Made by a program: the position numbers and the translations under genes | The notes under the pieces: model-generated | Databases searched by the model: none | What the model was told of the DNA's origin: nothing | What the model saw: the letters and a program-made list of their open reading frames with translations, nothing else | Source of the DNA: Candidatus Moraniibacteriota bacterium | GTDB taxonomy: Bacteria > Patescibacteriota > Minisyncoccia > Moranbacterales > UBA11712 | NCBI GenBank assembly: GCA_030679895.1 | Contig: JAUXSN010000047.1 | Coordinates: 1,328 to 65,327 of the forward strand | Length of the DNA stretch: 64,000 nt | Direction: 5' to 3' | Shown: positions 7,280 to 33,123 of the stretch, in pieces | Layout of the letters: every line of letters starts with the position of its first letter | Numbering within the stretch: the first letter of the stretch is position 1

Positions 7280-8398
7280 TTATACTAATTTGAGATTCGC
7301 GTCCGCCTCCAGATTTTTCCAATTATTATCGAATTTATTTTTATTCTTTGCCAGTTTATATTGATAATGCCCGGCTACGGCGATCATGGCGGCATTATCC
7401 AGCGAGTAGCCGGCAGCCGGCAACTGGTATTGGGAGTTTGGCAAAAGTCTTTTTATCGCTTCGCCAAGTTGTTTTCTTAACTCCTTGTTGGCCGAAACGC
7501 CGCCGCCGAGAAGAATGGTTTTAGGCTTATATTTTTTTGCCGCCTGAACCGTTTTATGGACCAAAACATCAATCACGGCCTGTTGGAAATCATAGCATAA
7601 AGCTGATTTTAATTTTACGCTTTTCAGTATTTTCGGATTATCCCGAATAGTATAGAGAACGGCTGTCTTGAGACCCGAGAAAGAAAAGTCCAGGTTTTTG
7701 GAATTTATCATCGGCCTCGGCAGTTGGAAGGTTTGACCTTGAGGAATTTCCCGATGAATAGTCGGGAAAGGGAAAGGTCGAACCTTGAATGATTTTCGGA
7801 ATTTATCTGCGATAGCGGATACAATTGGACCGCCGGGATACCCCAATCCTAGCATTTTTGCCACCTTATCAAACGCTTCTCCCGCCGCGTCATCGAGCGT
7901 CTGTCCGACAATTTTATAATCCAGATGTTTCTTCATCAAAATCAACTCCGTATGCCCTCCAGAAACGATAAGCGCCAGAACCGGGAATCTTATTTCCCCA
8001 ACATCGGATGTTAGGCTAAGCCGGTCGATAAAATTAGCATAAATATGACCGGATATATGATGAACGCCAACCAGCGGTTTTTTCCAGGCATACGCCAAAG
8101 CTTTAGCGGCATTCGTTCCAATGAGCAGAGCCGGAATGAGTCCCGGCCCCTGGGTGACCGCTATCAAATCGATATTCCCTGAAGAAATTTTGTTTTTCTT
8201 CAAAAAGCCCCGGAGCATCACAGGCAGATTTTTCAAATGTTCGCGAGCAGCCAAATTCGGAACCACCCCGCCGAAAGGGGCGTGGACTTTTGTTTGAGAT
8301 GAAACAAGGCTGTCAATCACCGAGAATCTATTTCTCGAAACATTCACCAGGGCGACGGCCGTATCATCGCAGGAAGTTTCAACGGAAAGAATACGCAT
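7280..8398 (-). CDS. tsaD: tRNA N6-adenosine threonylcarbamoyltransferase TsaD (Kae1/Gcp family)
   Basis: MRILSVETSCDDTAVALV..., GGVVPNLAAREH, HHISGHIYANF, LALIVSGGHTELIL. Start is moved to MRILS (ATG at complement 8396-8398). The ORF-track N-extension to 8506 is a read-through of an upstream repeat copy. The gene also contains an in-frame 61-nt palindromic element at 7728-7788. Confidence 0.9.
   Translation of the reverse strand: MRILSVETSCDDTAVALVNVSRNRFSVIDSLVSSQTKVHAPFGGVVPNLAAREHLKNLPVMLRGFLKKNKISSGNIDLIAVTQGPGLIPALLIGTNAAKALAYAWKKPLVGVHHISGHIYANFIDRLSLTSDVGEIRFPVLALIVSGGHTELILMKKHLDYKIVGQTLDDAAGEAFDKVAKMLGLGYPGGPIVSAIADKFRKSFKVRPFPFPTIHREIPQGQTFQLPRPMINSKNLDFSFSGLKTAVLYTIRDNPKILKSVKLKSALCYDFQQAVIDVLVHKTVQAAKKYKPKTILLGGGVSANKELRKQLGEAIKRLLPNSQYQLPAAGYSLDNAAMIAVAGHYQYKLAKNKNKFDNNWKNLEADANLKLV
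7728..7788. repeat. 61-nt near-perfect palindromic element (family A), in-frame inside tsaD
   Basis: AAGGTTTGACCTTGAGGAATTTCCCGATGAATAGTCGGGAAAGGGAAAGGTCGAACCTTGA. Outer arms AAGGTTYGACCTT/AAGGTCGAACCTT, inner hairpin TTTCCCGAY-GAATA-GTCGGGAAA. Translated as KVRPFPFPTIHREIPQGQT. Confidence 0.9.
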
Positions 8399-8441
8399 AT
8401 TTGATATTATACGGCAAAAGTTTAATTTTAGGAATTTCCAT

Positions 8442-8502
8442 AAGGTTCGACCTTGAGGAATTTCCCGACGAATAGTCGGGAAAGGGAAAGGTCGAACCTT
8501 GA
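8442..8502. repeat. second copy of family A palindromic element, intergenic between hup terminator and tsaD start
   Basis: 59 of 61 nt identical to the copy at 7728-7788. Confidence 0.9.
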
Positions 8503-8507
8503 TCACT

Positions 8508-8551
8508 AAACCACAAAAAACCCCGCGCTATGGCGGAGCTTTTTGTGGTTT
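8508..8551 (-). terminator. hairpin terminator downstream of hup (AAACCACAAAAA-CCCCGCGCTATGGCGGAGC-TTTTTGTGGTTT)
   Basis: Long stem with an inner GC stem. Sits directly after the HU gene stop on the minus strand. Confidence 0.55.
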
Positions 8552-30111: not shown

Positions 30112-30282
30112 AAGGCTTATTTTATCATTATTTAAAGCATATTATTAATATACTAAACTTGGAGACAAAAAAACAGGGGCCGCGCGAACGACCCCTGTCA
30201 AACACAAAAATCCTATTTAATCACTTGCATTCCCATTCCTCCCCCGCCCGACGCTAAAGCTTTGGCGGGCGAGCATACCGAT

Positions 30283-32034
30283 CTACATCATTCCACCCAT
30301 ATCCATGCCACCCATTCCACCTGGCATGCCTCCTTTTTCTTTCTTTTCCGGAATGTCGGTGACAACCGCTTCCGTCGTGAGAAGCATAGCCGCCGCGGAA
30401 ACCGCGTTTGAGAGGGCGCTAATGACTACTTTAGCTGGATCAATGATGCCCAGTTTAAACATATCATCATAGTGTGGCAATTCACGATTTGCATCGTATC
30501 CCATTTCAAATTTTGCTCCAGGATTAATCTTCTTCACATGCAAGATAACATCCTCGTCTTTTCCTGTTGCAATATTTCTCTGCTTCACCTCTACTTTTTC
30601 GTCCAAATAGGTTTTTTGTAGACCTTCGATATTTGAGATAACAATATCCGGAGATTGCCCTGCATTAGTTGCAATCTGCCTTAAAGGCATACAGAGGGAT
30701 TCAACAAATATTTGTACAGCTATTTTATCCTCGTTGGAAAGATTTATTTGTAAATCTCCTCTAAGTTTTGCTGATTCATTGAGTAGGGCAATACCACCGC
30801 CAGGAACGATCCCCTGCTCAAGCGCCGCTTTTGTCGCTTCGACCGCATCTTCCACGCGGTGTTGTTTTTCTTTCTGTTCGACTTCAGTAGCCGCGCCGAC
30901 TTTGATGACGGCCACACCTCCGGAAAGTTTTCCCAGTCTTTCTTGCAATTTTTCTTTGTCAAAATCGGAAGTGGCTTTTTCAATTTGGGCTTTGAGCTGC
31001 GCCACACGCGCGTCAATATCTTTTTTCTTGCCTTTTCCGTCAACAAGGGTCGTATCATCCTTGGTCGAAACGATTCTTCCCGCTTTTCCGAGATCCTCGA
31101 TCGTCACATTTTCCATTTTCATTCCCCGCTCTTCGGAAATGACCTGTCCGCCCGTGAGAACGGCGATATCTTCCAGCATCGCTTTTCGGCTATCGCCGAA
31201 TCCTGGCGCTTTGACCGCCAGAACATTCAGAATTCCTCTCAGTTTATTCACAACAAGAGTCGCGAGAGCTTCACCTTCCACATCTTCGGCGATTATCACC
31301 ATTTCTTTTTTGCCAGTCTGCGCGATTTTTTCAAGAATGGGAAGAATTTCCTGGATCGATGATATTTTTTTGTCCGTAATGAGAATATGCGGGTCTTTGA
31401 GCTCCGCTTCCATCGATTCAGCGCTTGAGATCATATAGGGAGAAATATAACCTTTGTCGAATTTCATACCCTCGACAATTTCATCCTGGAGACCGAAAGT
31501 TTGCGATTCTTCAACTGTAATCACGCCTTCTTTTCCGACTTTCGCGATGACTTTGGCGATCATTTTTCCGACTTCCGGATCCTGGGCGGATATTGTTGCA
31601 ACCTGTTCGATCGCGTCACCCAAAACTTCTTTAGCTGAAGATATGAGATCCTTTGAAACGCGATTAGATAACTTTAATAATGCATTTTTTAGCTCGATTA
31701 CGTTTATGCCTTTCGAGATGAATTTTGCGCCGGATTCCACGATTGATTGAGTGAGAATCGTCGCCGTTGTTGTTCCGTCCCCCGCCGCGTCATTGGTTTT
31801 GTTCGCCACTTCTTTCACGAATTCCACTCCGATATTTTCGAATTTGTCTTCGAGTTCGATTTCTTTGACGATGGTCACACCGTCGTTCGTCACCATCGGA
31901 GATCCAAATCCCCGATCAAGAACAACATTTCGGCCTTTGGGACCGAGAGTCACCCGCACAGCGTCAGCAACCTTGTCGATTCCGCTTTTGATTCTTCGAC
32001 GAGCGTCTTCATCGAACAAAATTTGTTTTGCCAT
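30283..32034 (-). CDS. groL: chaperonin GroEL
   Basis: 583 aa. [12 protein letters not shown]..., the classic equatorial ATP site, and a C-terminal GGM repeat ([16 protein letters not shown]). Confidence 0.95.
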
Positions 32035-32127
32035 ATTTTTTGAATTAATTATTATTTAGCACTCTCACGATGCGACTGCTAATCGCAATTATTATAGAAA
32101 ATATTTTTTCTGTCAACCTCTGATGAG

Positions 32128-33123
32128 TTAACCAAACGACTCATCATATGCAACCCCGGGCGGAAATATTTCTTTTGATTTCTTTTTATATTCTTCGTAT
32201 ATTTTCACCCCCTGCGGCTCCGGCAAAAAAATTAGATTATCGTCCGTTGCTTCGATATATGCGCCCTCCTTTTTGGTTAACGGATTGCGCGAAATTCTTA
32301 TGATTTGCTTTTGCTTTAGCCAGGCTTCCATTATATCGCCTCCCAGAAAATTTATCAAGGTCTCTTTGGTTTTTTGAATAAGCCGGCTTATCTTGCTATG
32401 TTCCGTATAATATTTGGCTGGCTTCAGTTGCGGCATTTCCCAATTCGGCTTGAATTTATTGATCCAGCCGGCATTTGTCCCGCAGAATTTTTGAAAAACA
32501 TTAAATCCAAAAATGGGATATACAAAGCTATATTCGTTCGCCCCAAATAAGTCTTGGCGCTGGATTTCAAGGCTCCCGGTCGTGATAAAGTAGTTTAGGC
32601 AGATCCGATTTTTTATTCTCTTTCCATATCGCCGCTTGCTAAGCAGATGCACAACTAACGTAACCAGTAGCCGCCCGGTAAATATTCTTCCTTTTTCTAG
32701 TGCCACAAAAAAATCAATGTCGCTGCTTTGTTCCGGGTTCTTCATCGCGAGAGTTCCTGTCACCGCGACCATCCGGACGAACGGGACAAAGCGCAACCAC
32801 CAAGCCACTCGCTCCGCAATTTTGAACTTCATGATGGAATTCTTGTCGTTTTGGATTCTCTTTCCGACTAAACTCTTCCGCCCTTTCAAAAAGTAAAAGC
32901 CGCGAAATTCTTCGATGTGCTTTCTTAATTCTTTATTCTCTAGCGTTTCGATAATATTCCCAAGCGTGCAATGGAAGCTTAGCTTCCCCCGTGGAAGCTT
33001 AGCTTCCACGATCAAATATTTCCAAAGTTCGAAAGAAGTTAAGGGATGATTGAGGATGTCGCAGTAGGTAATCGTATGAAGTATATTTTTAGAAAGCTGA
33101 GATTGCACAAACGTTAAGATCAA
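32128..33123 (-). CDS. nucleotidyltransferase-fold protein (Pol-beta superfamily GS/GT...SDID motif), function unknown
   Basis: 331 aa. VAVTGTLAMKNPEQSSDIDFFVAL fits the minimal nucleotidyltransferase signature. Occupies the slot upstream of groEL. Contains the family B palindromic element in-frame. Confidence 0.45.
   Translation of the reverse strand: MILTFVQSQLSKNILHTITYCDILNHPLTSFELWKYLIVEAKLPRGKLSFHCTLGNIIETLENKELRKHIEEFRGFYFLKGRKSLVGKRIQNDKNSIMKFKIAERVAWWLRFVPFVRMVAVTGTLAMKNPEQSSDIDFFVALEKGRIFTGRLLVTLVVHLLSKRRYGKRIKNRICLNYFITTGSLEIQRQDLFGANEYSFVYPIFGFNVFQKFCGTNAGWINKFKPNWEMPQLKPAKYYTEHSKISRLIQKTKETLINFLGGDIMEAWLKQKQIIRISRNPLTKKEGAYIEATDDNLIFLPEPQGVKIYEEYKKKSKEIFPPGVAYDESFG
32973..33007. 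repeat. second copy of family B palindromic element (GGAAGCTTAGCTTCC-CCCGT-GGAAGCTTAGCTTCC), in-frame in the nucleotidyltransferase-fold gene
   Basis: Two identical 15-nt hairpin units. Translated on the minus strand as VEAKLPRGKLSF. Followed by ACGAT, as in the spacer of the GT4 copy. Confidence 0.9.

Follow-up and report, generated by a model that had tools for sequence, protein, structure and literature searches.

This study examined short palindromic repeats in a 64-kb stretch of DNA, hereafter called the window, from the genome of a Candidatus Moranbacteria bacterium (a metagenome-assembled genome, MAG). Families A, B, and C of these repeats are, with a probability that we put at roughly 0.78, small non-autonomous hairpin repeats native to Moranbacteria and other Patescibacteria that behave like repetitive extragenic palindromic sequences (REPs) or like very short MITEs (miniature transposable elements with inverted repeats). 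Copies arise both between genes and within genes. The surviving intragenic copies add whole codons, keep the host frame open, and lie in permissive surface loops, and they would therefore be translated as 9–20 extra residues in conserved enzymes. The analyses described below support the multi-copy status of the elements, their lineage-specific presence, frame preservation, loop location, covariation, and lack of target-site duplication.

Repeat searches of the window recovered all six copies of families A, B, and C that a preliminary description of this DNA had located. Its count of two copies for each of three families proved incomplete, since a degenerate family B copy, a third A-like copy, and a fourth family, D, are also present. 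The copies are as follows.

7728–7788, plus strand: family A copy 1 (A1), a nested hairpin with the GAGGAAT orientation on the plus strand; covariance model score, 81.6 bits.
8442–8502, plus strand: family A copy 2 (A2), 97% identical to A1 and intergenic; 84.6 bits.
17766–17822, minus strand: the third A-like copy, intergenic; 46 bits, E 6e-10.
14971–15006, plus strand: family B copy 1 (B1), a hairpin of 10 bp with a TTGGGGTGAGGTT tail after it.
29419–29454, plus strand: family B copy 2 (B2), in frame within purH.
36047–36082, plus strand: the degenerate family B copy, the same as B1 at 25/36 positions; intergenic, between uvrA and an RNase J gene.
13461–13502, no strand assigned: family C copy 1 (C1), with a perfect palindrome of 17-bp arms at 13463–13499.
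32970–33011, no strand assigned: family C copy 2 (C2), with arms GGAAGCTTAGCTTCC, each self-palindromic.
13262–13303, no strand assigned: family D, the 19-nucleotide (nt) palindrome CCTAACATTCAATGTTAGG twice in tandem, which fills the spacer 5' of a GT4 glycosyltransferase gene.

A1 and A2 are identical at 59 of 61 positions and B1 and B2 at 33 of 36, and C1 and C2 agree at 35 of 42 positions, with the palindrome kept despite the differences. The pairwise BLAST E-values, for a database of 1.3 Mb, were 1e-24 for A, 1e-7 for B, and 0.002–0.03 for C; family C was further backed by a third copy in the metagenome locus L123. Every copy folded into a hairpin. For A and C the z-scores lay between -5.3 and -7.2, and for B between -1.9 and -2.8, so that A and C fold far better than their shuffles and B modestly better. 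The measured units are 60 nt for A (59 nt and a conserved 3' G), 36 nt for B, and 39 nt for C (as C1 in the GT4 gene), and these values replace the lengths of 61, 35, and 38 nt reported initially. The window sequence was also recovered in independent Logan contigs, and NCBI, Logan, JGI, and ENA each supplied independent assemblies that contain the elements.

Family A is built from an outer stem of approximately 13 bp with nearly self-palindromic arms, an internal loop (GAGGAAT/AGGGAA) that is conserved, and an apical hairpin that varies. The 36-nt unit of family B comprises a 10-bp hairpin (23 nt) and a G-rich tail, and family C consists of a pair of self-palindromic arms spanning 37–39 nt; family D shares this two-armed architecture with different arm sequences. 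The families had been described as unrelated, which is only partly right. The copy at 17766–17822, located directly after the stop codon of a 106-residue open reading frame (ORF; 17824–18144) and before a tRNA-Arg gene, combines the GAGGAAT/AGGGAA internal loop of A with an outer stem, AAAGCTAAGCTTT/AAAGCTTAGCTTT, whose arms resemble those of family C. Because this copy joins an A core to C-type arms, A and C are better regarded as modular relatives, and the hybrid suggests that the two families may exchange modules.

The five intragenic copies lie in the following genes.

7280–8398, minus strand: tsaD, host of A1, identified by Pfam; its true start is the ATG at 8398.
13319–14527, plus strand: the GT4 glycosyltransferase gene, host of C1, identified by Pfam.
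14648–15208, plus strand: mpg (methylpurine-DNA glycosylase), host of B1, identified by Pfam.
28477–30111, minus strand: purH, host of B2, identified by Pfam.
32128–33123, minus strand: an ORF of 326–331 residues, host of C2, encoding a conserved protein of Patescibacteria whose fold is probably that of a nucleotidyltransferase.

The ORF that hosts C2 had no sequence match in Pfam, NCBIfam, or PDB. Its AlphaFold model (predicted local distance difference test score, pLDDT, 81) yielded weak matches, all of them to nucleotidyltransferase-fold structures, and on this model the protein is probably of that fold.

As first reported, all five of these copies are read through in frame without a stop codon or a frameshift; three use one strand of the repeat and two the other. 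The predicted peptides are KVRPFPFPTIHREIPQGQTF for A1 in tsaD (minus strand read), PPLLNKERVGVRL for B1 in mpg, NLTPTLSLSRRG for B2 in purH (opposite strand read), EWKLNFHDGSLAS for C1 in the GT4 gene, and VEAKLPRGKLSFH for C2, and SFKVRPFPFPTIHR exemplifies a predicted peptide across an insert junction. A2, by contrast, is not coding. It lies upstream of the true tsaD start, in an intergenic region where the transcribed strand carries, in order, the HU terminator hairpin, A2, a TATAAT box, and the ATG at 8398, 44 nt downstream of A2. This ATG aligns with the N-terminus of every TsaD compared, and A2 is crossed only by the mechanical longest ORF, which starts at GTG 8506. Neither a 372-residue nor a 408-residue tsaD product is on record.

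Alignments of the host proteins with their orthologs indicate that the peptides at all five sites are lineage-specific additions in hypervariable loops and not ancestral sequence, in agreement with the preliminary description. C1 is a clean insertion of 39 nt (13 residues) that faces a gap at the DNA level, and none of the 13 GT4 orthologs carries it, including relatives of 69–75% identity. B2 is missing in 41 of the 45 aligned PurH sequences and is patchily distributed: it occurs in the orthologs P0122 (83% identity) and P0129 (76%) and, as a variant, in P0162 (56%), and is absent from P0123 (84%) and P0124 (82%). In a comparison of 14 gene pairs with L187, a syntenic relative, the well-conserved genes (at least 73% identity) show no indels other than B2 and C2. 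The A1 segment faces a gap in every solved TsaD structure shown in the alignment, as does the PurH insert in solved PurH structures, and the A1 loop holds other, unrelated sequences in Moranbacteria relatives. The B1 loop comprises 8–13 residues in most relatives. At the C2 site, the shortest orthologs have loops of 5 or 6 residues; the closest ortholog (87% identity) lacks C2, and an ortholog at 71% identity (P0247) has it. The gains at B1, B2, and C2 are not purely additive, with a few loop residues replaced and a net gain of 24–27 nt. AlphaFold models agree with the surface placement that had been proposed. B1 occupies residues ~108–119, a low-confidence coil flanked by secondary-structure elements; most of these residues lack regular secondary structure, and residues 111–117 have a pLDDT below 50, and C2 occupies residues 36–48, a low-confidence coil between two helices.

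The same loops are reused by unrelated inserts. Among 120 mpg orthologs, the B1 loop holds at least eight unrelated insert types, examples of which are PLLNKERVGVRL, SSSPARGEELEEGWEL, CRRPTSTxxKTSDVYL, VRPHSSLAARSD…RGRTASRH, and NPSPxLPLRKGES…KRxIKGDL. The predicted minimum free energies of DNA folding were -18 to -56 kcal/mol for insert-bearing mpg loops versus approximately 0 to -6 kcal/mol for short loops of 13 residues. A second Mpg site also holds B-type copies, in either orientation (L060 and L061), and the loops of tsaD and of the nucleotidyltransferase-fold gene are likewise recurrent insert sites.

The mpg comparison yielded some incidental observations. The best mpg match among GTDB representatives showed 77% identity. 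Seven GTDB records (L005, L010, L014, L015, L018, L021, and L038), titled "uncultured Bdellovibrionales" (several), "Gammaproteobacteria," or "Saccharibacteria," encode Mpg proteins 56–74% identical to Moranbacteria Mpg, and L005, L010, L018, and L021 have an adjacent GT4 gene as in the window; the submitted taxonomy labels of these records look unreliable. In a MAG labelled Actinomycetota (L066, ~10001–10609), the mpg ortholog has an in-frame stop (…PAAV*IRS…) in its most conserved motif. The gene could be a pseudogene, or the stop could be recoded or come from a sequencing error.

Family A was then surveyed in metagenomes with a pattern of two 13-nt arms separated by 25–40 free bases. Because this pattern fixed the arms, their conservation among the sampled copies is in part built in, which does not apply to the interior, the flanks, or the hits of the covariance model. 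The scan returned 102 metagenome stretches, which reduced to 97 non-redundant copies, and a covariance model built from family A copies added approximately 17 more. These loci carry no taxonomy, and their affiliation was judged from protein identity to the window and from base composition: 12 loci encode proteins 65–87% identical to window proteins, and the median G+C content of the loci is 43.5%, the same as that of the window. The hosts represent 70 Pfam families, mostly housekeeping, and include TsaD (seven times), LigA (four), MiaB-like proteins (four), GatB, MetRS, TatD, XseA, UvrD, MiaA, TrmD, and translational GTPases.

The A1/A2 subfamily, marked by the apical hairpin CCCGACGAATAGTCGGG, has near-identical members between different flanks in at least five further contexts (L087, L096, L105, L154, and L178). 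A single gene may hold more than one copy. The LigA gene of L123 contains one C copy and one A copy, and the TsaD gene of L178 (ORF 307–1512, plus strand) carries two A copies in two loops and in opposite orientations, with the predicted peptides QGSTFPLSAGASNSSRSNL and KGSTLRNFPTNSRGRERSNL. Copies of A nested within A were found in L182 (TsaD ORF 8–1228, minus strand), L101 (2851–2959), and L100 (13351–13447), and those of L182 and L101 are still in frame within TsaD genes. These arrangements, together with the lack of a target-site duplication, speak for mobility. Family B occurs elsewhere in L003, L015, L027, L060 (two copies), L061, L087, and L113 and in the purH orthologs P0122, P0129, and P0162. 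Family C recurs in the LigA gene of L123 and in the ortholog P0247, and family D in short intergenic spacers of related metagenome contigs (L123, 3659–3710 and 4284–4330; L086, ~8712–8729). The initial comparison with the Rickettsia palindromic elements (RPEs) is supported by these results, as further copies exist and the ortholog alignments show that the encoded peptides are not ancestral. The accompanying suggestion that the elements are active or were so recently would follow from the lineage-specific gains and from the near-identical copies in different contexts.

The free interior of family A always reads GAGGAAT, a hairpin, and (A)GGRAA. The sequence of the inner helix varies between copies and its pairing is kept, with compensatory double changes in nine of the ten pairs. 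The covariation amounted to 79 cells versus 27.9 +/- 3.5 in shuffled alignments, and none of 500 shuffles reached 79. The outer stems covary too, as exemplified by AAAGCTTGGCTTT/AAAGCCGAGCTTT and AAAGTCCGACTTT/AAAGTCGGACTTT. No flanking direct repeat was found in 68 of 82 copies, and the remainder have repeats of 1–3 nt, the level expected by chance. Two attempts to read further meaning into the stems were abandoned. A T·G pair at outer-stem position 7 (half of the copies, never C·A) had hinted at a single folding strand; the search pattern fixed most of the stem, and the inner helix, with 8 G·U versus 4 A·C pairs, shows no clear strand asymmetry. The T7 variant is also no commoner on the usual coding strand (18/43 versus 20/41), which discounts it as a weakener of the mRNA hairpin.

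The frame statistics of family A were pronounced. With at least 50 open codons required on both flanks of one strand, the frame was kept in 56 of 63 copies (P = 7e-20), and 43 + 10 of the 84 canonical copies are in frame in ORFs with at least 50 open codons on each side. A single length class modulo 3 accounts for 76 of the 97 copies, with 53, 56, 59, 62, or 65 nt between the arm ends (P = 1e-19). A G flanks 67 of 82 copies on the 3' side, and the unit including this G measures 54–66 nt in one-codon steps. The coding orientation favors one strand by 40:8 (P = 3e-6; 5e-4 when three versus two open frames are allowed for). The favored strand, whose three frames are all open in the consensus, is read chiefly as QGSTFP…NSSRSNL or KVRPFP…IPQGQT (40 of the 43 copies so oriented). 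Two to four frames are open in families A, B, and C. Family D, with none of its six frames open, serves as an internal control and was seen between genes only, in the window, L123, and relatives.

The main rival to the hairpin-repeat explanation holds that these sequences are structured motifs with a function for the host, such as an RNA or single-stranded DNA hairpin bound by a host protein, spread or homogenized by gene conversion and not by selfish transposition; the motifs could serve mRNA processing or stability, nucleoid organization, DNA uptake, or repair. We consider this rather unlikely, although several findings fit it. Both stems covary strongly around an invariant GAGGAAT/AGGGAA loop, B1 is conserved between orthologs well past the synonymous expectation, the stem codons P-L-L and K-E-R are constant across mpg orthologs with a variable loop codon, and DNA-repair or tRNA-modification genes are frequent among the hosts. 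A hairpin needed for mobility would covary likewise, however, and a host function is difficult to match with approximately 70 unrelated protein families, both orientations, and additional intergenic copies. Presence and absence are patchy and at odds with the host phylogeny, one loop holds different families in different lineages, copies are nested, and Rfam has no match: in the window, nothing was found for the elements at the gathering threshold, and on five element-rich loci nothing was found at E <= 1.

It is very improbable that the inserts are left untranslated as mini-introns, endonuclease-processed hairpins, or sites of ribosome bypass, with the peptides irrelevant. The hairpins are indeed very stable (-30 to -39 kcal/mol) and would impede ribosomes, and bacteria of the candidate phyla radiation (CPR) are known for intervening sequences in rRNA genes. 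Excision or bypass would nevertheless leave frame and stop codons unconstrained. The lengths in threes, the in-frame majority, the coding orientation that is open in three frames, and the confinement of the closed family D to sites outside genes are constraints of that kind, which argues that the inserts are translated and not excised. The chance of there being no repeat family at all, merely accidental likeness, convergent loop composition, or an assembly artefact, is close to nil and is already contradicted by the data. The C copies are just 83–86% identical with weak BLAST E-values, and the loops are hypervariable at all five host sites; against this stand the E-value of the A pair, more than 100 further family A copies, the recurrence of B in several genomes and two host genes, the C copies found in LigA and in the ortholog of 71% identity, and the identical sequence in independent Logan contigs.

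Several points weigh against the hairpin-repeat reading. Translation of the inserts we infer from frame statistics, and movement we likewise infer, as no occupied and empty pair with near-identical flanks was seen. The stem covariation around the invariant internal loop and the conservation of B1 would fit a selected function equally well. B1 differs at 1 of 36 positions and at 0 of 12 third positions, versus 63 of 175 outside it (P = 0.0035), and this conservation could stem from hairpin constraint, copy homogenization, or repeated acquisition. Simple cut-and-paste does not account for B1, B2, and C2, three of the five sites, where a few loop residues have given way to the element. A tblastn search for a transposase found nothing in 1.95 Mb of window and loci, to which the source genome contributed 64 kb; this was a weak test with an approximate IS608 TnpA query and no profile search of all ORFs. 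In addition, no related insertion sequence (IS) was seen in the loci, and viral contigs contained no exact-pattern match to A, B, or C and hence no hint of a phage vector.

If the hairpin repeats are mobile, they may move as a folded single strand recognized by a putative enzyme that acts on it. The recognized structure would be the hairpin with its invariant internal loop, by analogy with the "peel and paste" of IS200/IS605 or REP-RAYT systems and with attC recombination. Pre-existing palindromes may be preferred as insertion sites, a preference that would explain why certain loops are hot spots, why loop residues are replaced, and why copies are nested. A bolder proposal, which we regard as possible but unlikely, is that family A and its relatives constitute a new structure-defined type of mobile element specific to the CPR. 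It would be characterized by a modular hairpin (self-palindromic arms, the invariant GAGGAAT/AGGGAA internal loop, and a covarying apical stem limited to 3-nt length steps), recognition of the folded single strand by a putative enzyme, preferential homing to loops with an existing palindrome, and precise excision. If this were true, housekeeping proteins would undergo continual "loop swapping," which would represent either an unrecognized transposition system or a host-exploited variation of protein surfaces.

We compared the elements with known systems. RPEs are described in the cited passages as palindromic repeats of approximately 100–150 bp in several families, found only in Rickettsia, in frame in unrelated conserved genes, where they are translated as additional peptides that the protein fold accommodates, and also in intergenic regions (Ogata et al. 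2000, as summarized in PMC10969869 and PMC3733652). Measured against those passages, the present elements are alike in forming several families of stable-hairpin palindromic repeats in a small-genome bacterium, in their in-frame insertion into ORFs of conserved genes whose orthologs lack the insert, and in the placement of the peptide in a fold-compatible surface loop (B1 and C2 by AlphaFold; TsaD and PurH by gaps in solved structures). They differ from RPEs, so described, in their units of 36, 39, and 60 nt and in their Moranbacteria host, and it is size and host, not sequence comparison, that set them apart from RPE-1 to RPE-10. Also unlike the RPEs of those accounts, family A is modular in that its stems covary, its internal loop is invariant, and its apical hairpin varies in 3-nt steps, and a single protein loop is reused by many families. 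"RPE-like" is therefore a statement on behavior and not on membership.

REPs of the GTAG and CGTC super-families are palindromes of 20–40 bp, mostly extragenic and sometimes in ORFs (Di Nocera et al. 2013, PMC3733652). Intragenic REPs, which encode short peptides, are often found in genes for the replication or repair of DNA, and the CGTC type has no known dedicated transposase (PMC3733652). B, whose 36-nt unit contains a hairpin of 23 nt, and C, at 37 nt, fall within this size range; A (60 nt) is larger. B and C lack a GTAG or CGTC tag on either strand, and of the A copies, A2 has CGTC at the inner loop-stem junction of one strand only and A1 has none. In contrast to REPs, of which a small minority is intragenic, the present elements are not predominantly extragenic (of the 84 family A copies that are canonical and thus orientable, at least 51% are intragenic). 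They also belong to a different phylum, and no RAYT gene was found by the approximate IS608 TnpA search of 1.95 Mb.

Palindrome-associated elements of the IS200/IS605 type and REP-RAYT systems have ends defined by hairpins, show a bias in strand or orientation and no target-site duplication, may excise precisely, and insert beside or into other hairpins. The likeness of the present elements to these systems is proposed as a mechanistic analogy. Unlike IS200/IS605, they have no Y1 HUH transposase detectable by the weak tblastn test and no conserved target tetranucleotide that we could identify. Integron attC sites are imperfect palindromes of 57–141 nt with paired boxes that are conserved, a central spacer that stays unpaired, and a terminal hairpin that varies, and they are recognized as folded single strands. 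Here the analogy would be architectural: attC sites lie between cassettes beside an integrase, whereas the present elements lie in frame in housekeeping genes and lack the R-box consensus GTTRRRY. Classical bacterial MITEs (ERIC, BOX, RUP, and Correia) measure 70–300 bp, have target-site duplications, and derive from a recognizable IS (PMC10969869). Our elements resemble them in being non-autonomous, in their terminal inverted repeats (the 13-bp outer stem of family A), and in their in-frame fusion to ORFs, and differ in their units of 36–66 nt and in the related IS not seen in the loci. Because they are shorter than 70 bp and lack a target-site duplication, they are not classical MITEs. In a literature search of incomplete coverage, papers on RPEs, REPs, and MITEs were found, and none that described such elements in CPR or Patescibacteria.

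Should the hairpin-repeat explanation be correct, in-frame repeats of the Rickettsia kind would be widespread in the little-studied CPR, and the phenomenon would recur in unrelated, small-genome, and probably host-dependent bacteria. Nearly all knowledge of CPR/Patescibacteria genomes comes from metagenomes, and protein annotation in them is automatic. Hairpin repeats that add 12–20 codons in frame to TsaD, PurH, Mpg, LigA, GatB, MetRS, UvrD, and others would shift start-codon calls, create spurious conserved peptides (KVRPFP…IPQGQT, QGSTFP…NSSRSNL, and PLLxKERxGVRL), disturb alignments for phylogeny, and reduce the confidence of structure prediction. More than 100 family A copies with clear covariation make the mechanism of mobilization directly testable, and the reuse of one loop by many families is a natural experiment on the insertion-tolerant sites of essential enzymes.

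Several other features of the window were observed. A type IV pilus/type II secretion-like cluster (18876–27020, minus strand; PilM-like, T2SSF, T2SSE/MshEN, response regulator, and histidine kinase genes) is syntenic with L187, and its two poorly conserved genes (57% identity) carry most of the ordinary non-palindromic indels relative to L187. Perfect hairpins of 12–14 bp at 42776–42807 and 36139–36170 look like ordinary intrinsic terminators outside the repeat families; the former has A-runs and T-runs on both flanks, as in a bidirectional terminator, and the latter has no such runs. At 4464–4572, between a tRNA-His/Lys/Arg cluster and the 3' end of a 433-residue ORF, inverted repeats of approximately 16–20 bp (ATTCATCCCTCACCATTTTT/AAAAATGGTGAGGGATAAAT) enclose 69 A+T-rich bases (DNA fold z-score, -4.7) and may represent a MITE-like element or else a terminator of unusual length. 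The sole match in the window to a non-tRNA RNA family was the Rfam DUF3800-IX RNA (RF02968) at 54529–54597 on the minus strand, which scored 51.1 bits versus a gathering threshold of 36.8.

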